A stretch of DNA of 37,658 nucleotides from Parcubacteria group bacterium GW2011_GWA1_56_13 (GCA_001004905.1 LCRY01000002.1:69747-107404); one strand, 5' to 3'; shown: positions 6,801 to 16,122, counted from the stretch's first letter. Made by a program: numbers and translations. The notes: generated from the letters alone by a model not told the origin.

Positions 6801-7852
6801 CCGGCCCGTCGTTCGTCATTGGCTCTTCGACCGCCACCAACTTTATCGTGACGAACAAGGGAAATGTGGGCATCGGCACGACGAATACATATACGAATGG
6901 CACCGGTAATTTAACCGTAAACAATTTTTTGCAAGTCGGAAATTCAATTCAGGGTTTAGGTGGCGGCAGCCAAGGCGACCTGTTTCTTGGCGGCGGTACC
7001 GGCAACTCACAGGTTTATATCAATGCCGGCGCCATAGGTTCTATCGTAAGCGGCGGCATTAGTTTGGGAGAAACAAATAATTATTGGAGCAATGCGTTTA
7101 TTGCCAGCACCATTACATTTGGCAGCGCGGGAGCGGGAGACACCGGCCTCTCCCGCATCTCGGCAGGCAAAATCGGCGTTGGCACCGGCACGGCAGGAAG
7201 CTCGGCAGGGACTCTGATAGCAAACACGGTCGGCATCGGGACGACGAGTCCGGGAGCGAAGCTGCATATCGAGGGTGGTACATCGGGCAGCTCGTTCGCC
7301 TCTATGTATCTAATCAACAATACGGCATATTCTGCTGGTTCTGCCGTAAGGATTTCGCTCGCCCCAGATTCAGCATATGGCTCGAATCCCGCTACCTACG
7401 CTCCGTACATTGAAAGCTACGCACAAAATGACGCAAGCAAGGCTGGTCTTGCATTTGCGACATATAACGGGGCCGGTTTTCCAGAAGAGAGACTAAGGAT
7501 TACAGCTGCTGGCAACGTCGGCATCGGGACGACGAGTCCGAGCACTCGTCTGCATATCGTTGACTCAAATCCTGTCGGTGCCGCGAATACGGTTGCCAAT
7601 CAGGACGTACTTACGGTGGACAGTAATACCTACGCGTATATAAACCTTCGTTCCCCTTCTTCCGGCACCGACATAGCGGGAGGTATTTTGTTCAGTGACG
7701 ACGCGAGGGCGCGGGGAGGAGTCATCTACAACCATCGGGAGTCTAACGCGGTATCTGACCGCTTGGACTTTTTGACCTCTGCCGGCACGAGAATGTCAAT
7801 CAACTCCTCCGGCAACGTCGGCATCGGCAGGGGCGCTCTTGGACGTGTATAA
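3851..7852 (+). CDS. Giant surface/fibre protein, N-terminal part (HTH, TM, Ala/Leu helical stalk, GNVGIGTTSP modules); frameshifted at ~7829
   Basis: ATG 3851 preferred over TTG 3740. HTH IPEAANLSGYSKGYLSYLCRTGKI...WSVD, TM YAAGMTALAVITLSALAA, 8 GNVGIG-type repeats. The ORF ends just after a broken repeat. Confidence 0.8.
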   Translation: MAPFFNEKSQKNIQIPEAANLSGYSKGYLSYLCRTGKILGTYSHNEWSVDLASLEGFMRSQSERKEARARSLASSRAIEYQSRRPPSPASNVPAVVHAPPPARRSKYGFTKPVFTPAETTVGSPSLFSKYAAGMTALAVITLSALAAHTLVPPIAVRVASLTKDAAFDVRIVFGDVSARIAEKVEEARKVEHAHTPLALADVRALAQPDLSALRMNVDSARRVSVSMEAIVAGTLPASTRMSMDGELRTLARDAYHLLTSPSATFDALMGAHAILGERAYTATVASFSTYRSLIDTLGERSLALAVSARDLLSRAPRFVSDLNLALGSAIVNASHAAIRADASLAYGLSKAAPKSAAALAALFGTAGDTLARTTARIPALATSFFLDTAALPSELAPTIAEAVFDAEYRAAERFLALSDRTARLSLASLFAAGHFAQDSLALLRAAPPALDDAYLGTIGKGAVAINQATAPLLAAIAPSLSAGEELALATYQTIQNLFDATNRMLALLLGPPPVVVSNPPPTRSVLTTLSASTTPATYTTIVQGISLASLDQSLATLRANIIAEVSGMINPVATQVAYDHVFKYTETAPFNGGSVENDVSAPFFTASDADGTNAFAGTFSAGTTTVKNLVVTNTSTSTFAGPLSVAGALTVTGTTTAAGFISTNLGVALAPAYTFQGDTGTGFWSPTASTLALSTGGVERLRIDADGNVGIGTSSPDALLSLQQVTNGTTFLSAYRVTDIAPSGDFISFKQNDGTTLFRVDNSGNLLAGGIINSGSQTITSTSQPQFRIQYDPSNEITFAAGVTGTTTVGLNGTAPGLAFTPQSNLVNQFNFTNASSDSVLSIDTVNKRVGVGTTSPWAQLSVNPNGITGPAFVVGSSTATNFIVTNAGKVGIGTAAPSNQLSVAGSIDLGTMGNFLTGYGRSISWSTAGTSHNDSASLMALSGNILKIRGSGAITLNEDNSGNVGIGTTSPWAQLSVNPNGITGPSFVIGSSTATNFIVTNKGNVGIGTTNTYTNGTGNLTVNNFLQVGNSIQGLGGGSQGDLFLGGGTGNSQVYINAGAIGSIVSGGISLGETNNYWSNAFIASTITFGSAGAGDTGLSRISAGKIGVGTGTAGSSAGTLIANTVGIGTTSPGAKLHIEGGTSGSSFASMYLINNTAYSAGSAVRISLAPDSAYGSNPATYAPYIESYAQNDASKAGLAFATYNGAGFPEERLRITAAGNVGIGTTSPSTRLHIVDSNPVGAANTVANQDVLTVDSNTYAYINLRSPSSGTDIAGGILFSDDARARGGVIYNHRESNAVSDRLDFLTSAGTRMSINSSGNVGIGRGALGRV

Positions 7853-10800
7853 AACTGGATCTAATGACCCACTGGTCCAATTTGGGAGTTGGGGACTCAC
7901 AGATAACCATGCTGTAACACTGATGAACGGAGCTGGAGAATTAGATCTCTTTGTATCTGGGGCGAGCGACACCTTCATGCTCGGGACAACGCAGGGGGAT
8001 GTCGGAATGTTCTTTACTTCAGGTGACGATTTCCACCTAGGCAATAAGAACGCCTCGCCGTACGTGACTGTCAAAGACGGCGGCAACGTCGGCATCGGGA
8101 TATTAAGTCCCACGGCGCTATTAGATGTGAGTGCTGCAGCAGCGAGCACCGATATAGTGAGAATAAGAGCCGGTGGCGCTGGGATTTCATTAGGCACCAA
8201 CGCTTCCGGGTTCGGCCTCATAGGAAATACAGCATTTGGAAGTGTCATTACAATAGATACAAGCGGCAACGTCGGCATCGGCGATACCACGCCGAGCTAC
8301 AAACTGGAGGTTAACGGAGATTTTAATGCCACGGCTGTCTACTCAAACGGCGTCCTCCTTTCGCCGGGCACGGGTTCCAACTGGTCGGTAAGCGGCTCCG
8401 ACATCTATCGCTCGGCAGGAAACGTCGGCATCGGGACGACGAGTCCGCAAAGCTTACTGCATTTAAGCAGTTCAAGCATAGATGGTGTTCATTTTAGACT
8501 TGAAAGCGCAGATACCGGCGGAAACGTATGGGAAATCATTTCTACCGGTTCAAATAACGACGGCGGCGCTGGTAATTTGAGGTTCTATAACGGCATAACC
8601 GGAGTGGGGCCGGTATTTACAAGCACCGGCAACGTCGGCATCGGGACGACGAGTCCGCAAAGCCCGCTCCATATCGAGAACGGCAGTCCGCTCATCGTGA
8701 CTTTTGACAATGACGCCGCTATGTCTGCGTCACGGCCCGCATGGGCAGCAGGCGCGACGGGTGCGCTATATGAAATAGGTTCTATCACAAGCTATTCGGG
8801 GACTATAGTGAACGACGTTACGGCGCGCTTGGTAATCGATGCTTCCGGCCTCGTCGGCATCGGGACGTCGACGCCGGGGGCGAAGTTGGAAATTTATGAT
8901 GACACTTTTGGGGGCGCGACACCGCTCGCGGTCTACGGTAACTCGGACAACATTACCATTACGGATATTTCGACAAACAGACAAAACCAAGGTTCGTTAC
9001 TCTATATTTCTACGCCCAATGAGTTGAGCAACAGTAATAGCATTGGTATGTTCGGCGTCGGAGATGCCAGCGACACGGGGCAGAAAGGCAACTTGTTCCA
9101 CATTACGCAAACCGGCAACGTCGGCATCGGGACGACGACGCCAGGGCGAGCATTACATGTTCTTTCATCAGGAGATCAGGCAATATTTGAAGGCACGGGA
9201 AACGCAGGTGTGGATATTCGAGCACAAGGTGCTGAGGCCGGTAATTTAGCTTATCTTGACCTCGCGACTAACAGCACCGGTGTTGCCACCCCGGATTACA
9301 ACGTCCGCATCGCTGGCTACGAAGACAACAGCCTTAGAATTTATTCCAGCGACACAAATGAACGCATCCGAATGACAAGCGACGGCAACGTCGGCATCGG
9401 GACGACGAGTCCATGGTCTATAGCAACTAACTATGGAACTCTGGCTATCGGCGGGACTGACGGTGGGGGTCTTCGGTTTGGGAAAAATAACGGCGGTACA
9501 GCCCGATTCTATGCTGATGACGGAGGCATGTTCCTTCAGGTAGCAAGTACAACTCTTCCCATGGTATTTGCGACGGGAGGTAACGAACGCATACGTATTG
9601 ATAAAGACGGCAACGTCGGCATCGGGACGACAAGTCCTGCGGCACAAGGTTCCGGAGCATCGCCGCGCATTTTAGAGGTTTATGGCGGAAGTGATGTCGG
9701 GATGCTTAATCTTAGTAGTAGTGCCACCAGCGACGGTTCTTCTGCTGGTGCAGTGGCTTTTATCACGAGTGCCAGTCCATCTGCAGACAAGCGTCTTGGT
9801 CTTGTCGTCGGCGCAAACGACGGCAGTTCAGCGGCATCGACGAATGGACGGCTTACTTTCTGGACAAATAATGCAGGAACAATTGCCGAACGGATGAGAA
9901 TAGATAAAAGCGGCAACGTCGGCATCGGGACGACGGACACGAGCACCTATAAGGTGAACGTGAACGGTTCGCTCAACGCCACGGAGATCCGCGTGAACGG
10001 AGTAGTGCTAAATCCCGGCACCGGCTCCAACTGGACGGTGAGTGGCTCTGACATCTACCGCCTCGCCGGCAACGTCGGCATCGGCACGACGAGCCCGGCT
10101 AGCCTCCTTCATGTAAACGGTCCTGGAACGTTTACGCCTTTTGGCGGCTCTGATGCGCGCCAAGTCGTCATCACGACGCCCGGTGGGACCGATGGAGGTA
10201 TCGTTCTAAGTGCCAACTCGTCAGATGCGACGACGAGAGTGGATATTTCAAGAGTAAGCGGTGATTTGACATTCGCCCTCGGTTCAGGAACGGCCGAAAG
10301 AATGCGCATCACCTCTTCCGGCAACGTCGGCATCGGGACGACGACACCGTCGAATAAATTGACCATATATACCGGCAATATCGCGAACGCCAATGAGGGG
10401 ATATCGCTGACACGGGGCGCAGTCGGCGCGCCGCAGGACAATGTGTTCGGGATGCGCCTCAAGTCGGATGCTTCCGGGAATTACCGCGGAGCGTTCACGA
10501 TAACGAGCAATATCGGCAATCCCGAAACCGAGGCCTTGACGATCGGCACTGGCGGCAACGTCGGTATCGGGACGACGAGTCCGGAGACATTGCTCGATGT
10601 AAATAAAACCGTAGCAGGTGGAGAAGTGCAGCTGAGGGTAAAAAATCCTTCCAATTCTGCATCTGCAGCGGCCTCTGTAATAGTCGAAGTAGGCGGTTCG
10701 TCTGCGACGGGAGACGCCCGCTATGTAACTTCGGATGGGACTACCTACTGGGCATTTGGGCAAGATATAAGTGCATCAAATGCCTTTAAGATTTCTCAGA

Positions 10801-11303
10801 ATGCCGCGCTTGGCACAAACGACTTTTTGACAATTCTAACGAGCGGCAACGTCGGTATCGGGACGACGAGCCCGCAGGCTTTGTTGCATTTGAACAGTAC
10901 GGGGAACACGGTTTTAACAATAGAATCCGTTGGAGATAATAATCCTGCCATAAGATTCCGGTCAAACGACATTCAAAAGGCAGTTTTAGGTTATGACAAA
11001 GACATTGATGCTTTCAAAATATCTCACAGCGAATCGGGAACATCGTTCACAGACAATCAGTTGATTATAAAAAGCGGCAACGTCGGCATCGGCACGACGA
11101 CGCCGACCTCGTACGTCGGAGCAACGCGCGTACTGGACGTTTATAATGCGGTCGATACTTCTATTTCTATCGGCAAGGCGGGAAAGAATTACGAATTTTT
11201 CTTAGGCAGTGACAATGCTTTGACATTCCGCGATAGCACCGCGGGCGTAGTCCGAATGCTGATTTCCTCTTCCGGCCTCGTCGGCATCGGGACGACGAGT
11301 CCG
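5969..11303 (+). repeat. Dispersed in-frame ~30-bp repeat, consensus GGCAACGTCGGCATCGGGACGACGAGTCCG, ~23 copies
   Basis: Copies start near 5969, 6395, 6515, 6737, 6860, 7223, 7511, 7811, 8082, 8265, 8418, 8628, 8847, 9114, 9384, 9609, 9912, 10068, 10320, 10554, 10845, 11076, 11274. Confidence 0.9.
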
Positions 11304-13013
11304 GCCACCTTGCTTGAGGTAGGCGGCTCGACCAACAACATCACCTTCGACGGATACAAGAACTGCACGGGATACACCAGCAACAGCAACGGCCTCCTCG
11401 CCTGCACGGCTTCAGACCAGCGCCTAAAGCAGGACATCAGCCCGCTCGCGGGAGCGAGCGGGCTTGCGGCCATCGGCGCACTGAATCCCGTCTCCTTCTA
11501 TTGGAAACCCGCGGCCGAGCGCGGAACGAACGAGCAGTTCGGTCTCATCGCCCAGGATGTCCGGAACGTATTCCCGAATCTTGTTACCACCACGAACCCA
11601 ACTCCGCTTGCGCCCGACGGCACGCTCACCATCGACTACCAGGGCCTCATCGCCCCGATGGTCCTCGCGATACAGCAGTTGGATGCGCGGACAAAATTCA
11701 TCGTGAGCGCCGCATCGTCCACCGCGCTTACGGTCGGCAACGCGGGCGACATCGGCGTCGGAACGTCGATCGCCGGCATCTCCGCCAAGTTCTCCGTCTC
11801 GGGAAATGTCTTCGCGACTTCATATGAGACCGCCAATATTCCCGCAACGTCCTTTACGCTCGGCAGCACGAATTCGACAAGCTCACCGCAAGCGACCTTC
11901 ACGGCGCAGATACCGAGCGCGGTTCTGACCGCGCTCGGTTCTGTGGACCTGTACAAACTCGCGACGTATAACCTTTCGGGCATTTCCGCGCTCGCGCTCG
12001 CGCTTGAAGAACAAGAAGCACGCATCACCTCTCTTGAGTCACGCGTCGCGGCGCTCGAGAACGGGACCATCACTTCGACCAGCGGCACGACATCTCTTTC
12101 CACCACCTCGCTCACTGACGCGCTCAATACTCTCGGCGTGTTCATTAAGAGCGGCTTCGCCCAGTTCGGCACGCTCGTCGCCGACCGATTCGTCGCCGCC
12201 GCCGATTCCGCCGGCACCGCCTCTGCCGGCACGGTTACCATCCTCGCGGGCAATACCGTCGCGCAGGTCAACAACGCGTACGTGACGCCGGCAACCAAAG
12301 TATTCATAACGTTCACCGCTCCGGTTACGGGCTCCTGGTACATCAACGACAAAAAAGCAGGTTCGTTCAAAGTGGTGCTCGCAAACGCGCAAACGACGGA
12401 CGCCTCATTCGATTACTTCCTCGTGCAGACCGAGGGGCAGATGGCGACCACCACGACGACTATCTCCGGACCGAGCGTGGAATTGAGCGGCGGCACTACC
12501 GCCACTTCGCAAACTACGACCACCTCGACTACGCTCACTGCAGGCACGACGGACACGTCAACCACTACCGCAACCTCGACTGTAGGAACGACCGGTCCTA
12601 CGGCAACGACAACTCCCTCCTCGAGCGACACCATCGCACCAGTGGTCACGCTCAACGGCGACGCCGCCATGCAGATAACGGTGGGCGACACCTTCACCGA
12701 CCCCGGCGCCACCGCCTCCGACCCTCCGACTGATAGCTCGGAGCAGGCGACCGACCTCACGGCACATATAACTGTATCGGGTGCGGTTAATACCGCCACC
12801 GCAGGGCTCTACACCCTGACCTACTCCGCCACCGACGCGGCGGGGAATACCGGCTCCGCCTCCCGCGTCGTGACGGTGGCCGCCCCCGCAACTTCGACAA
12901 GCTCACCGCAGGCAAGCTCGCCATCTGACGGCACTACCACGACCACCATCGACACAACCACCTCTTCGACCGACACGACCTCCGCCCCTCCAGTCGACAC
13001 CACCTCTCCATAA
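7839..13013 (+). CDS. Giant surface/fibre protein, C-terminal part (15 GNVGIGTT modules, peptidase S74 intramolecular chaperone, coiled coil, DUF5011-like Ig, Thr-rich tail)
   Basis: SDQRLKQDI...LNPVSFYWK...GLIAQDV...IDYQGLIAPMVLAIQQL (S74). DTIAPVVTLNGD...FTDPGATASD...GLYTLTYSATDAAGN (Ig-like). It continues the upstream ORF in another frame, so TTG 7839 is probably not a true start. Confidence 0.85.
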   Translation: MDVYKTGSNDPLVQFGSWGLTDNHAVTLMNGAGELDLFVSGASDTFMLGTTQGDVGMFFTSGDDFHLGNKNASPYVTVKDGGNVGIGILSPTALLDVSAAAASTDIVRIRAGGAGISLGTNASGFGLIGNTAFGSVITIDTSGNVGIGDTTPSYKLEVNGDFNATAVYSNGVLLSPGTGSNWSVSGSDIYRSAGNVGIGTTSPQSLLHLSSSSIDGVHFRLESADTGGNVWEIISTGSNNDGGAGNLRFYNGITGVGPVFTSTGNVGIGTTSPQSPLHIENGSPLIVTFDNDAAMSASRPAWAAGATGALYEIGSITSYSGTIVNDVTARLVIDASGLVGIGTSTPGAKLEIYDDTFGGATPLAVYGNSDNITITDISTNRQNQGSLLYISTPNELSNSNSIGMFGVGDASDTGQKGNLFHITQTGNVGIGTTTPGRALHVLSSGDQAIFEGTGNAGVDIRAQGAEAGNLAYLDLATNSTGVATPDYNVRIAGYEDNSLRIYSSDTNERIRMTSDGNVGIGTTSPWSIATNYGTLAIGGTDGGGLRFGKNNGGTARFYADDGGMFLQVASTTLPMVFATGGNERIRIDKDGNVGIGTTSPAAQGSGASPRILEVYGGSDVGMLNLSSSATSDGSSAGAVAFITSASPSADKRLGLVVGANDGSSAASTNGRLTFWTNNAGTIAERMRIDKSGNVGIGTTDTSTYKVNVNGSLNATEIRVNGVVLNPGTGSNWTVSGSDIYRLAGNVGIGTTSPASLLHVNGPGTFTPFGGSDARQVVITTPGGTDGGIVLSANSSDATTRVDISRVSGDLTFALGSGTAERMRITSSGNVGIGTTTPSNKLTIYTGNIANANEGISLTRGAVGAPQDNVFGMRLKSDASGNYRGAFTITSNIGNPETEALTIGTGGNVGIGTTSPETLLDVNKTVAGGEVQLRVKNPSNSASAAASVIVEVGGSSATGDARYVTSDGTTYWAFGQDISASNAFKISQNAALGTNDFLTILTSGNVGIGTTSPQALLHLNSTGNTVLTIESVGDNNPAIRFRSNDIQKAVLGYDKDIDAFKISHSESGTSFTDNQLIIKSGNVGIGTTTPTSYVGATRVLDVYNAVDTSISIGKAGKNYEFFLGSDNALTFRDSTAGVVRMLISSSGLVGIGTTSPATLLEVGGSTNNITFDGYKNCTGYTSNSNGLLACTASDQRLKQDISPLAGASGLAAIGALNPVSFYWKPAAERGTNEQFGLIAQDVRNVFPNLVTTTNPTPLAPDGTLTIDYQGLIAPMVLAIQQLDARTKFIVSAASSTALTVGNAGDIGVGTSIAGISAKFSVSGNVFATSYETANIPATSFTLGSTNSTSSPQATFTAQIPSAVLTALGSVDLYKLATYNLSGISALALALEEQEARITSLESRVAALENGTITSTSGTTSLSTTSLTDALNTLGVFIKSGFAQFGTLVADRFVAAADSAGTASAGTVTILAGNTVAQVNNAYVTPATKVFITFTAPVTGSWYINDKKAGSFKVVLANAQTTDASFDYFLVQTEGQMATTTTTISGPSVELSGGTTATSQTTTTSTTLTAGTTDTSTTTATSTVGTTGPTATTTPSSSDTIAPVVTLNGDAAMQITVGDTFTDPGATASDPPTDSSEQATDLTAHITVSGAVNTATAGLYTLTYSATDAAGNTGSASRVVTVAAPATSTSSPQASSPSDGTTTTTIDTTTSSTDTTSAPPVDTTSP

Positions 13014-13017
13014 TTCA

Positions 13018-13044
13018 CCACTTGGCGGTCTCACCGCCAAGTGG
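13018..13044. repeat. REP-like palindrome copy 1 (CCACTTGGCGGT-CTC-ACCGCCAAGTGG)
   Basis: Perfect 12-bp arms, 3-nt loop, upstream of the transposase. Confidence 0.9.
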
Positions 13045-13250
13045 ATTGTCAACTGAGTGGTATAAAATGCAGTTATGGGCACGAGGAAAAAAGCTTTTAC
13101 AAACGGAGAATTCTTTCATATTTACAACAGAGGCGTTGATAAGCGCACTATCTTCAGCGACGGTCATGACCAACACAGATTTTTCACAAGCATGATCGAA
13201 TTCAATACCATAGATCCGATAGGAAGCTTGTATGAGAACTCCTTTCACCA

Positions 13251-13273
13251 ACTTGGCGGTGAGACCGCCAAGT
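13251..13273. repeat. REP-like palindrome copy 2, inside the transposase CDS (ACTTGGCGGT-GAG-ACCGCCAAGT)
   Basis: 10-bp arms; translated as QLGGETAKS. Confidence 0.9.
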
Positions 13274-13524
13274 CAGAAGAACGATTGGTCAATATCATTG
13301 CTTTTTGTCTGAATCCAAATCATTTTCATTTTATTCTGGAACAATTAACGGATAGGGGTATCAGTGAATTTATGAGGAGATTGAGCGGTGGATATACCTG
13401 GTATTTCAATAATAAATATGAAAGAAGCGGTTCTTTATTTCAGGGCGTATTTAAAGATGTACATATCGATTCCAATGAGTACTTGCTCCATCTCAGCGCC
13501 TATGTGAACTTAAATGATCGGGCC

Positions 13525-13557
13525 CACCAACTTGGCGGTCTCACCGCCAAGTTGGTG
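13525..13557. repeat. REP-like palindrome copy 3, inside the transposase CDS (CACCAACTTGGCGGT-CTC-ACCGCCAAGTTGGTG)
   Basis: 15-bp arms; translated as HQLGGLTAKLV. Confidence 0.9.
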
Positions 13558-13735
13558 AGCAGTAAGTCGAGTTGGGAAGAATATACAAATGGAGGAAACG
13601 AGGGAATTTGTGAAAAAGAAATTGTCCTAGGTCAATTCAAGAACACGGGCGAGTATAAGAAATTTGCACTCGATTCTCTCGATGCGATTATACGGAGAAA
13701 AGCAGAGCCAAAAGAGCTTGATATATATTTGGAAT

Positions 13736-13766
13736 AGTCACTTGGCGGTGAGACCGCCAAGTGACT
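13736..13766. repeat. REP-like palindrome copy 4 (AGTCACTTGGCGGT-GAG-ACCGCCAAGTGACT)
   Basis: 14-bp arms, overlapping the transposase stop codon. Confidence 0.9.
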
Positions 13767-13853
13767 GTATTGGGCGGTTCGATCAAAGCAGTAGACGGTT
13801 TCCATAGGGTTCCATAGGGTACAATGGAGAGGTCGGGACTCATTCGCCATTCC

Positions 13854-13888
13854 TTATTCTGAATTCTTAATTCTCTATTCCTAATTCT
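13854..13888 (+). repeat. Heptamer tandem repeat (TAATTCT-like x5)
   Basis: TTATTCT GAATTCT TAATTCT CTATTCC TAATTCT just upstream of gap. Confidence 0.7.
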
Positions 13889-13896
13889 CGCATCTT

Positions 13897-14919
13897 ATGG
13901 CCATTCGCGTCGCTATTAACGGGTTCGGGAGGATAGGCCGCGCATTCGCCCGCCGCTCGCACGGTCGTGGCGTTACGATCGTTGCGATAAACGATCTTGG
14001 TTCGCTCGAGAATCTTGCCTACCTCCTCACCTATGACACTGTGTACGGCCGAGCGCCCTTCACCGTGGAGGCAAAAGACGGGAAACTGATACTCGACGGC
14101 AAAGGGGCGAAATTCTTTTCGGAAAAAGACCCGGCGAACCTTCCGTGGAAAGACCTCGATATCGATGTCGTCGTCGAGTCGACTGGATTCTTCACCGACT
14201 ACGAGAAGGCGCGGGCGCATGTCACAGCGGGTGCGAAGCGCGTGGTCATCACCGCGCCGGTGAAGGGGAATTCAAGCGCCGGCGCAACGGTTCTCGTCGG
14301 TCTGAATGAGGAGAAACTCGCGACGTGCGAGATAAGCTCGAACGCGTCATGTACGACGAACTCCGCAAGTCCGGTCATCGCCATTCTCGACGAAACCATC
14401 GGCATCGAGAAAGCGATACTCTCCACGGCGCATGCATATACGGCGAGTCAGTCCATCGTGGACAGTCCCTCGAAGAAGGACAAAAAAGAGGGAAGAGCGG
14501 CGGCGCAAAACATCGTGCCGACAACGACCGGCGCCGCGATAGCCGTTACCGATGCGTATCCGCAATTGACAGGAAAGTTCGACGGCATAGCATTGCGCGT
14601 TCCCGTTCCGGCCGGATCCATCGCCGACATTACGTTTCTCGCGAAGCGCTCAACGACCGCGGAGGAAGTGAATGACATCTTGCGCGAGGCCGCAAAAAGC
14701 TCCCGCTGGCAGGGTATCTTCAAGGTGACCGATGAGGAGCTCGTGTCGAGCGATATCATCGGCGAGCCCTACGCTTCCATCGCGGACCTCGGCATGACGC
14801 GCGTGGTCGACGGCACGCTGGTGAAGGTGCTTACGTGGTACGACAACGAAATGGGGTACACCGAATCGCTCGTCAGGCATGTGCTCGCCGCCGCTAATAG
14901 TTCGACCAACTCACCATAA
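13897..14919 (+). CDS. gap: Type I glyceraldehyde-3-phosphate dehydrogenase
   Basis: AINGFGRIGR, SNASCTTN, NIVPTTTGAA, WYDNEMGY. Confidence 0.98.
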   Translation: MAIRVAINGFGRIGRAFARRSHGRGVTIVAINDLGSLENLAYLLTYDTVYGRAPFTVEAKDGKLILDGKGAKFFSEKDPANLPWKDLDIDVVVESTGFFTDYEKARAHVTAGAKRVVITAPVKGNSSAGATVLVGLNEEKLATCEISSNASCTTNSASPVIAILDETIGIEKAILSTAHAYTASQSIVDSPSKKDKKEGRAAAQNIVPTTTGAAIAVTDAYPQLTGKFDGIALRVPVPAGSIADITFLAKRSTTAEEVNDILREAAKSSRWQGIFKVTDEELVSSDIIGEPYASIADLGMTRVVDGTLVKVLTWYDNEMGYTESLVRHVLAAANSSTNSP

Positions 14920-15420
14920 ATGCCCAAGATTTTCATCGCCGCCGACCACGCCGGATTCGCGCTCAAGAACGCGCTCGTCGAGCACATCCGCATGCTCGGA
15001 TACGACGTGGAAGATATGGGAGCGTTCTCTCAGGATCGCGACGATGACTATCCGGATTTCATGATGCCGCTTGCCGAACGCGTCGCAAAAGAAAACGCGC
15101 GCGCCGCGGATGCCGCGCGCGGCATCATCATCGGCGGCAGCGGACAGGGAGAGGCGATGTGCGTTAATCGAGTGAAAGGCGTCCGCGCCGCCGTATTCTA
15201 CGGGCCAATGCGCGTAACAGAGGCGCTTGACGTCGAAGGAGGCCGCTCCGAGGACGGCTTTGACGCGGTGCGACTTCCGCGCCGACATAACAACGCGAAT
15301 ATACTCTCCATCGGCGCCCGTTTCGTTTCCGGGGACGAAGCCGATGAAGCAGTCCGCATCTTCCTTGAGACCCCTTTTTCCGGTTCGCCGCGCCACGCGC
15401 GCCGGCTCGCGAAATTCTAG
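14920..15420 (+). CDS. rpiB: Ribose-5-phosphate isomerase B (RpiB/LacA/LacB family)
   Basis: IAADHAGF, DDYPDF, GIIIGGSGQGE, HNNANILSIGARF, RHARRL. Confidence 0.93.
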   Translation: MPKIFIAADHAGFALKNALVEHIRMLGYDVEDMGAFSQDRDDDYPDFMMPLAERVAKENARAADAARGIIIGGSGQGEAMCVNRVKGVRAAVFYGPMRVTEALDVEGGRSEDGFDAVRLPRRHNNANILSIGARFVSGDEADEAVRIFLETPFSGSPRHARRLAKF

Positions 15421-15423
15421 CGC

Positions 15424-16122
15424 ATGAATCTCGTCGTCCCGGCCGTGCTCCCCATCTCGTCCAAGGACTTTGAGGAAAAACTTTCCTTGCTCACGCGCAT
15501 CGCTTCGGTCAGCCGGGTGCAGATAGACGTCGTGGACGGTACCTTCGCGGCACCGGCGTCCTGGCCGTATACCGCTCCCGCGGAACTGCAGCGCCGGGTC
15601 AAACGCAATGCAATGCTGCCGGCGCTCGACCGGATCGAGTACGAGATCGACCTCATGTGCTTCGACGCCGAACATGCGGCGGCGCCGTGGCTTGCGCTCG
15701 GCGCCACACGTCTCACTTTCCATGCAAAAAGCGCGGTGGACGTGCCGCGCCTGCTCGCATCCGCGCGGAAACGCTATGGTTCTTTCGTTTCTTACGGCCT
15801 GGCGCTCGATATTACGGACAATATCGCGCTCGTCGAACCCTTTATCGGCGAACTATCCTACGTGCAGTTCATGGGCATCGCGCACATCGGAAGGCAAGGC
15901 GAGCCGTTCGACGAGCGCGTTTATGAGAAGGTGCGCACATTCCACCTATGGCATCCGGAGGTTGCGATACAGGTTGACGGCGGTATTTCCTTCAAGTCCG
16001 CGAAAAAGCTTGTCGCGCTCGATGTCACCAATCTCGTCATCGGCTCCGCCATTCTGCGCGCCAAGGATCCCGCCGCCGCCCTTGAGGCATTCGAGACGTT
16101 CACCACGCCGTATGGTGTGTGA
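15424..16122 (+). CDS. rpe: Ribulose-phosphate 3-epimerase family protein (divergent)
   Basis: VPAVL, QIDVVDGTF, VQFMG...GRQGEPF, IQVDGGI, LVIGSAI; lies between rpiB and tkt. Confidence 0.85.
   Translation: MNLVVPAVLPISSKDFEEKLSLLTRIASVSRVQIDVVDGTFAAPASWPYTAPAELQRRVKRNAMLPALDRIEYEIDLMCFDAEHAAAPWLALGATRLTFHAKSAVDVPRLLASARKRYGSFVSYGLALDITDNIALVEPFIGELSYVQFMGIAHIGRQGEPFDERVYEKVRTFHLWHPEVAIQVDGGISFKSAKKLVALDVTNLVIGSAILRAKDPAAALEAFETFTTPYGV

Follow-up and report, generated by a model that had tools for sequence, protein, structure and literature searches.

This study concerns a 37,658-nucleotide stretch of DNA from Parcubacteria group bacterium GW2011_GWA1_56_13 (GCA_001004905.1, LCRY01000002.1:69747-107404; the whole stretch is called the window hereafter), in which positions 13,018 to 13,766 hold a transposase gene and four copies of one palindromic hairpin. 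The arrangement is probably a module of the kind formed by repetitive extragenic palindromes (REPs) and REP-associated tyrosine transposases (RAYTs), i.e., 'REPtron'-like, in a genome of the Patescibacteria (candidate phyla radiation, CPR), with cognate hairpins inside the gene itself. As proposed here, a leaderless gene for a Y1 HUH transposase of single-stranded DNA (ssDNA) would be bounded by two cognate palindromic hairpins of 23-35 bp, two further copies of the same hairpin would be translated in frame, each into a flexible loop on the protein surface, and the four slots would be held alike by copying at the DNA level, that is, by concerted evolution. The features of the module, in window coordinates, are the following:

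13018..13044, no strand: upstream hairpin (U), 12-bp perfect stem, loop CTC; left module boundary
13058..13066, plus strand: putative extended -10 box with the sequence TGgTATAAA, its end 8 nt ahead of the ATG
13075..13737, plus strand: Y1 HUH transposase-like gene (RAYT-like), 220 amino acids (aa); Pfam Y1_Tnp, fold match, invariant residues
13251..13273, plus strand: first internal hairpin (I1), 10-bp stem, loop GAG; in-frame HQLGGETAKS
13522..13560, plus strand: second internal hairpin (I2), 15-bp perfect stem, loop CTC; in-frame HQLGGLTAKLV
13736..13766, no strand: downstream hairpin (D), 14-bp perfect stem, loop GAG; right module boundary

The transposase gene and its product

By sequence and by structural model, the predicted product of the open reading frame (ORF) at 13075..13737 is a RAYT-like Y1 HUH transposase. 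Its score with Pfam family PF01797 (Y1_Tnp, IS200-like) is 28.8 bits, above the curated cut-off of 23 (E 1.5e-6). The HUH motif is His83-Phe-His85 (13321-13329) and the catalytic tyrosine Tyr143 (13501-13503). The gene was compared with homologous loci of Patescibacteria, namely the 80 that ranked best out of 568 confirmed matches, and within the resulting set of 81 sequences His83, His85, Tyr143 and Asn147 (Tyr+4) are invariant (81/81). The AlphaFold (AF2) model built on the alignment of these sequences has a mean predicted local distance difference test score (pLDDT) of 86.8 and places Tyr143 inside the helix spanning residues 134-145. A Foldseek search of the PDB with this model ranked 4er8_A, the E. 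coli REP-associated tyrosine transposase with a REP hairpin, at the top (E 1.7e-5, template modelling score on the target 0.64), followed at ranks 2-12 by IS608 and ISDra2 TnpA chains; a PDB sequence-profile search with the transposase gave nothing at E <= 0.01. The peptides encoded by the internal hairpins (residues 58-66 and 151-159) form coil with dips in pLDDT in the model, and the alignment places the I1 peptide in a coil or loop of variable length ahead of the HUH strand.

The protein belongs to a family of more than 5,000 homologous clusters (best identity 68-78%), whose named members are labelled Parcubacteria, Patescibacteria, Minisyncoccia or RayT. The GC content of the gene is 0.40 as opposed to 0.57 for the genome. 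As a side observation, the RAYT genes of loci L102-L125 have a GC content of 0.35-0.43 (0.50-0.53 in two distant ones) at a host GC of 0.48-0.68, even where synteny suggests long residence.

Four copies of one hairpin in the window

A zero-mismatch search of the whole window with ACTTGGCGGT-NNN-ACCGCCAAGT returned four copies, starting at 13020, 13251, 13530 and 13740 and thus spaced by 231, 279 and 210 nt. The matches to ACTTGGCGGTNNNACCGCCAAGT lie at 13020-13042 (loop CTC), 13251-13273 (GAG), 13530-13552 (CTC) and 13740-13762 (GAG), and 100 dinucleotide-preserving shuffles gave 0 matches (chance expectation 0). The outer stems are unlike between copies yet paired, with 12/0, 10/0, 17/1 and 15/1 pairs/mismatches for U, I1, I2 and D (locus L102), and folding as ssDNA yields -15.5, -11.7, -19.9 and -17.2 kcal/mol, respectively, with z-scores of -9.4, -5.7, -6.5 and -10.4. 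Hairpin U begins 5 nt past the stop codon of a giant upstream gene of 1724 aa, hairpin D overlaps the TAG stop codon of the transposase gene by 2 nt, the two internal copies share one reading frame of the ORF, and I2 starts 8 residues C-terminal of Tyr143.

These results confirm in full what the first-pass annotation of this DNA had described: a RAYT-like transposase with palindromes both around and inside its gene, four copies in alternating orientation at spacings of about 230, 280 and 210 nt, the second and third of them translated and the third lying just past the catalytic tyrosine, with outer stems that differ but stay paired. Two regularities of the window were considered as design features and rejected. 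The spacings are all multiples of 3 in the window, but flank-to-internal spacings at other loci are not, pointing to chance. The alternation of CTC and GAG loops is real; since loop orientations are mixed across loci, chance is probably its likeliest cause.

Hairpins at homologous loci

A hairpin was called at each of the four homologous places when it had at least 8 pairs and at most 1 mismatch, with the following occupancy at the homologous loci:

U hairpin: 69 of 78 assessable loci
I1 hairpin: 49 of 81 loci
I2 hairpin: 55 of 81 loci
D hairpin: 66 of 81 loci

Hairpins fill all four slots at 31 loci and no slot at 2, and random control windows contained a hairpin in 22 of 1037 cases within the same ORFs and in 71 of 1525 cases in the flanks. 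The D hairpin starts a median of 2 nt past the stop codon across the family. Whereas the foot ACTTGG/CCAAGT is mostly retained across loci, the inner 4 bp and the loop vary between them, and 44 different core types with perfect pairing were counted. Identity of the inner 6 bp was seen in 197 of 280 site pairs from the same locus, as compared to 822 of 28161 (2.9%) between loci. The expectation of the first-pass annotation that each homolog would bring a palindrome of its own to the two internal positions, changing in step with its flanking copies, is thereby borne out. The opposite outcome, a peptide kept without palindromic DNA, is contradicted: the encoded peptides are variable (LGGETAK, LGSPTSK, LGHPMSK, LRGSTPK and others), yet the pairing is retained.

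The association extends to distant Y1 genes from genomes of the same order (n=40, 28-42% identity), nearly all of which have cognate flanking hairpins. An internal cognate copy is found in 7 of these 40 at about +160 to +205, and a second one in 2 of the 40 at about +442 to +472. The hairpins of these distant subfamilies, foot included, are unrelated in sequence to those of the window (L132, L137, L149, L151).

Concerted change of the four slots

The comparisons between slots point to copying of the hairpin DNA itself. The same mismatch is repeated at several slots of one locus, also in inverted form, in L014, L029, L025, L037 and the paralog C2:243917 of the window's genome. With peptides that vary, cores that agree within a locus and imperfect hairpins copied together with their mismatch, the unit under selection is the DNA palindrome and not the peptide. 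Where two slots share a stem, their loops nearly always match, either as they stand or as exact reverse complements; compared with the other sites, the U loop is direct in roughly half of the cases and inverted in the other half, whereas about 70% of comparisons among I1, I2 and D are direct, as expected with TAA and TGA barred in frame.

The pair L049 and L067, whose proteins are 87% identical, illustrates the tempo of this change. All four hairpin cores differ between the two loci, the replaced part being only the 4+3+4 nt between the feet, and their nucleotide homology opens at the left foot of U and closes at the right foot of D; the module therefore spans hairpin to hairpin. Judging from such sequence comparisons, the 11-nt core (4 bp, 3-nt loop, 4 bp) is an entity that turns over much faster than the protein. 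In L041 alternate slots hold two core types, GTGC at U and I2 and AAGC at I1 and D. No other types are as common among the 50 such hairpins of its 600-kb genome, where two close RAYT genes are present, as is a hairpin whose left arm is of one type and whose right arm is of the other. Slots with unlike core types are also found in L018, L067, L052 and L059, and chimeric hairpins in G040:C30:324 and at the D position of a paralog in the window's genome.

Combined, these patterns make the concerted evolution of the four slots well supported at the sequence level. Candidate copying mechanisms would be enzyme-mediated cutting and rejoining between hairpins, short-patch conversion and template switching. 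Quasipalindrome correction by template switching would explain perfect stems, one-step compensatory changes and loop flips; as it acts within one hairpin, it does not account for the same core in four hairpins 200-280 nt apart.

Putative promoter region

The position of the putative -10 box in the window implies a leaderless or near-leaderless mRNA with no Shine-Dalgarno (SD) sequence. Across the family, the right foot of U is directly followed by a -10-like hexamer: a TAnnnT motif ending 3-12 nt before the ATG occurs in 58 of the 69 loci with a U hairpin (mode 6 nt; control, 18 of 124 random ATGs), 41 of those 58 have TGn ahead of it, and an SD-like motif is found in 2 of the 69. Additionally, the TTGGnn of the left U foot stands exactly 17 nt upstream of the -10 hexamer in 28 of 60 loci. 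From the closeness of the hexamer to the ATG, the rarity of SD motifs and the TTGGnn spacing, the transposase gene looks leaderless, and in about half of the loci the U hairpin would itself be the promoter. The upstream hairpin would thus lie in or next to the promoter, providing in that half TTGGnn at -35 and a 17-nt spacer to a TGn-extended -10. Self-regulation through the upstream hairpin is plausible because U abuts or overlaps this putative promoter.

Hairpin families in this and other genomes

Five Y1 genes are present in the window's genome (704 kb in 7 contigs, GC 0.57), and each is flanked by a hairpin family of its own. The paralog at C2:243917-244573 (module region C2:243863-244611) is 71% identical to the window protein. 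Its U, I1 and I2 sites carry ACTTAGCGGT-NNN-ACCCCTAAGT, a type with a C.C mismatch, and the hairpin downstream of it combines the left arm of that type with the right arm of the window's type. The mismatched type recurs in L014 and L051, which belong to other genomes. The remaining three genes are more distant:

C2:148778-149233; C2:65331-65732 (minus strand); C2:189702-190334: distant Y1 genes (28-39% identity) with their own 10-bp-stem, 3-nt-loop hairpin families ATACAAGGT, TTTAGGACAC, TGTTCAACAC

The gene at C2:148778-149233 has an additional internal hairpin copy and a downstream doublet. A genome-wide count of copies, as suggested in the first-pass annotation, found 5 extra hairpins of the window's family at 4 places, directly behind stop codons. 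In five other genomes, hairpins with the same foot number 50, 34, 14, 13 and 7.

Two further arrangements were observed. A tandem or nested hairpin, ACTT[GGCGGTgaaACCGCCTT]GGCGGTctcACCGCCAAGT, lies at C2:187083-187120 directly past a stop codon; this form resembles a 17-nt unit (TT plus a 15-nt inner hairpin) doubled at the foot and may hint at the position of a DNA cut. At G040:C11:13194-13782, seven hairpins with the ACTTGG/CCAAGT foot and at least 5 core types are packed into about 600 nt, resembling an array of bacterial interspersed mosaic elements (BIMEs) within a CPR genome.

Comparison with known systems

The window module shares with RAYT/REPtron systems (E. coli TnpA-REP, PDB 4ER8; Pseudomonas REPIN-RAYT) a common Y1 HUH fold with one catalytic tyrosine, a gene flanked by cognate palindromic hairpins (in the window and, for U and D, in the 69/78 and 66/81 loci listed above), the same hairpins dispersed behind other genes, and several enzyme/hairpin pairs in one genome, each with its own hairpin type. 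Unlike those systems, it has cognate hairpins in frame inside the gene at two conserved positions, perfect palindromic stems with a 3-nt loop, and a foot, ACTTGG/CCAAGT, that is common to many CPR lineages, as opposed to species-specific REPs. The first-pass annotation had proposed a distinct HUH element; the module is rather a variant of the REP/RAYT arrangement, although not a RAYT in the strict sense, since it departs from two defining features of that family, the GTAG guide and single-copy vertical inheritance.

Among the transposases of the IS200/IS605 group, TnpA of IS608 and ISDra2 has the same fold, and there too subterminal hairpins are present at both ends of a short element. These enzymes work on single-stranded DNA substrates, and IS200 uses its left-end hairpin in expression control. 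Unlike IS200/IS605 elements, the two ends of the window module are the same palindrome and not distinct left-end and right-end structures, tnpB is missing, hairpins lie inside the ORF, and near-identical copies within a genome are lacking. From the homology with E. coli TnpA-REP and IS608 TnpA, the fold and the association of gene and hairpin, we infer that the enzyme binds the hairpin as ssDNA and cuts beside it.

A third point of comparison is provided by the Rickettsia palindromic elements (RPEs), in which palindromic repeat DNA is likewise translated as part of proteins and tolerated in loops. RPEs are about 100-150 bp long and scattered over unrelated genes, and we know of no transposase associated with them. 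In contrast, the window element measures 23-35 bp, occupies fixed positions in the gene of its own presumed enzyme and matches the flanks of that gene.

Several observations weigh against assigning the module to the REP/RAYT type and against the proposed roles of its hairpins. As the first-pass annotation had remarked, no GTAG/GTGG guide adjoins any of the four window copies, whose foot is (C)ACTTGG; such a tetranucleotide is described 5' of the foot of REP hairpins (PMC6006769). Either internal copy can be missing, I1 in 32 and I2 in 26 of the 81 loci, with the catalytic residues intact there, and both are therefore dispensable for the protein. A close homologue (63-71% identity) occurs patchily, in 5 of 18 genomes of the same genus, and the window's genome holds two close paralogs and three distant ones in 704 kb, whereas classical RAYTs are single-copy and vertically inherited (PMC5581495). 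The solo copies of each Y1 hairpin family in this genome are few, at 1 to 4 places, far below the more than 100 copies per genome of classical REPs (PMC2817692), and the relatives of the transposase gene depart from classical RAYTs in their low GC (0.35-0.43 vs. 0.48-0.61 in the hosts). On the side of transcription, the distance between hairpin and -10 box is about 13 nt greater in the window than at canonical loci, so that U cannot supply a -35 element there, and a simple sigma-70 scan of 12900-14000 found nothing at U and one promoter-like site inside the ORF, no more than in shuffles. Mismatches across the family, counted on the sense strand as 24 G.T and 23 A.C, give no sign of selection on the sense RNA, a spectrum that still leaves room for a role in RNA.

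Term look-ups in PMC6006769 and PMC2817692, covering part of each article, found no mention of intragenic REPs within RAYT genes, and no published description of in-frame cognate hairpins in a RAYT gene was found in the searches made of the literature on Patescibacteria/CPR RAYTs and Parcubacteria IS200, where one preprint names no more than the KEGG family.

Possible roles of the internal hairpins

The internal copies are tentatively read, at somewhat short of an even chance, as extra binding sites acting in cis. Through them, the enzyme could hold and damp its own gene when the gene becomes single-stranded in transcription or replication.

The main alternative, if rather unlikely, is that the internal hairpins are functionless passengers. 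The module's own REP would then have entered two permissive loops at the protein surface in frame, by insertion or conversion, much like RPEs, and would be renewed by homogenisation through template switching, short-patch conversion or by-products of the enzyme. I1 and I2 do lie in variable-length coil of low pLDDT, they are dispensable as counted above, their loops flip freely, and the copying of mismatches together with the hairpin suggests mechanical copying rather than selection for pairing. Pure neutrality, however, predicts decay as the rule in a gene that tolerates loss, and the same two slots are filled with unrelated hairpins in the subfamilies of 30-40% identity introduced above. Both internal copies moreover keep the same reading frame, and a third internal position does not recur, hairpins being found in the 22/1037 control windows only.

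A further, improbable reading would make the 11-nt core itself a mobile cassette, with the enzyme cutting at the conserved foot and pasting cores between foot-bearing slots, and with the in-frame copies serving as a protected master archive that re-seeds the flanks and the REPs across the genome. If true, this would be a self-referential transposase gene and a new kind of HUH-driven concerted evolution.

Two readings are less likely than cis binding sites or passengers. The first, which appears very doubtful, places the function in RNA, such that I1 and I2 would slow translation or act as RNase entry or stability elements while D and the solo copies would be terminators or stabilisers of 3' ends, roles that have been described for E. 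coli REPs. The strong stems suit this reading, as does the start of D and of the solo copies a few nucleotides past stop codons (the family median given above, and similarly in the window's genome). In a leaderless mRNA, however, U would be upstream of the transcription start and hence outside the RNA, yet it co-varies with the other slots. G.U-compatible mismatches are not in excess over A.C, the loops are seen either way round, the stems lack a following T-run, and a terminator scan of 12900-14000 was empty. Rfam likewise gave no family at threshold for these hairpins, only a sub-threshold FsrA terminator hairpin at 20-23 bits against a gathering score of 80.

The second, the suggestion of the first-pass annotation that the hairpins are recombination sites cutting the gene into cassettes that are excised, inverted or exchanged, is hardly probable on present comparisons. 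HUH enzymes such as IS608 TnpA can cut and rejoin strands, and this capacity, the slots with unlike core types and the chimeric hairpins could all be accommodated. In L049 and L067, however, similarity is even along the coding sequence, at 0.89 ahead of I1, 0.88 from I1 to I2 and 0.91 past I2, so that the core has moved and not the segment. The concordance between segments is no worse than that between two halves of one segment: identity matrices of the three segments correlate poorly, at r 0.18-0.23, as do those of the two halves of the middle segment, at r 0.06, and nearest-neighbour percentiles are alike; with a star-like family tree at the sampling used, these correlations say little either way. 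Each of the 81 genes is intact, with 0 internal stops and collinear alignments, and none has an inverted or deleted segment. Contigs of runs X1, X3, X5 and X6 were compared with window positions 12600-14200; those of X1 and X3 cover the whole module unchanged, and no contig joint falls at a hairpin (two listed joints are matches to diverged paralogs), with the proviso that rare rearrangements are invisible in assembled contigs, which thus weigh neither for nor against this reading.

Selection on the peptide QLGGxTxK with the palindrome as a by-product can practically be dismissed: the I2 foot codons do encode the well-conserved His151, Leu153, Lys159 and Leu160, but the peptide between the feet varies freely while pairing is kept through the 44 core types, the non-coding flanks contain the same sequence, and one core type is shared by both internal sites in P0080, P0089, P0025 and P0067.

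Genomic neighbourhood

Upstream of the module, the ORF at 7839-13013 (plus strand, 1724 aa) contains many GNVGIGTTSP-like motif repeats and two recognisable domains, Peptidase_S74 (endosialidase chaperone; residues 1192-1249) and a bacterial surface Ig-like domain (residues 1604-1680); it looks like a gene for a giant surface or fibre-like protein, judging from these repeats and domains. Its Thr/Ser-rich tail stops 5 nt short of hairpin U, and the contigs of runs X1 and X3 have a 15-letter difference at 12957-12980 within it. Downstream, the spacer between D and the gap gene (13767-13896) is AT-rich, with a direct repeat GGTTCCATAGG present twice (about 13803-13826) and an ATTC(C/T)T-like run (about 13850-13890). 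It measures about 130 nt, compared to the 68-83 nt spacer of empty congener sites. Past gap, an rpiB-like gene (LacAB_rpiB) and a ribulose-phosphate 3-epimerase-like gene at 14920-16122 form an ordinary sugar-phosphate cluster.

The site between the giant gene and gap holds the window's subfamily in G000, G010, G006, G007 and G014. In the last four, the homologue lies between a giant surface-protein gene and gap and has all four hairpins, with cores CGGT, CGGT, GGGT and AGGC, respectively. A search for empty sites, also put forward in the first-pass annotation, was successful: the module is absent in G017, G034 and G003, whose spacers measure 77, 68 and 83 nt and are too diverged to align with the window, so that exact insertion boundaries and a target sequence are not derivable from them. 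Other Y1 subfamilies occupy the site in opposite orientation in G013, G005, G016, G035 and G031, with their own hairpins, some of them internal. Overall, Y1 modules of several subfamilies and both orientations lie just upstream of gap in at least 10 of the 23 congeneric genomes compared (L103-L125), and the space looks like either a hot spot for such modules or a site of great age at which modules replace one another. No genome was found to contain near-identical copies of the entire element; paralogs within a genome are only 50-75% identical, and the closest pairs lie between genomes. What is seen is therefore presence or absence at one site and not recent transposition.

Conclusions

Most knowledge of REP/RAYT systems comes from Proteobacteria, in which the repeats are by definition extragenic, and the field still faces the question of how REPs multiply and remain matched to their enzyme. 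The source of the window is an ultra-small groundwater bacterium, and many similar bacteria keep hairpins at the same four places. In a family of more than 5,000 clusters in ultra-small Patescibacteria, the presumed substrate would be written into the enzyme's own reading frame at fixed places, with all hairpin copies of a locus changing together and a conserved foot flanking an 11-nt core of fast turnover. For the annotation and assembly of CPR genomes, the module is a warning that intragenic palindromes can be real and not errors. With about 750 bp, four sites and an apparently leaderless gene, it offers a compact natural system suited to the study of hairpin recognition, copying and homogenisation by HUH enzymes, and to asking whether a transposase may regulate itself via structures in its own gene.

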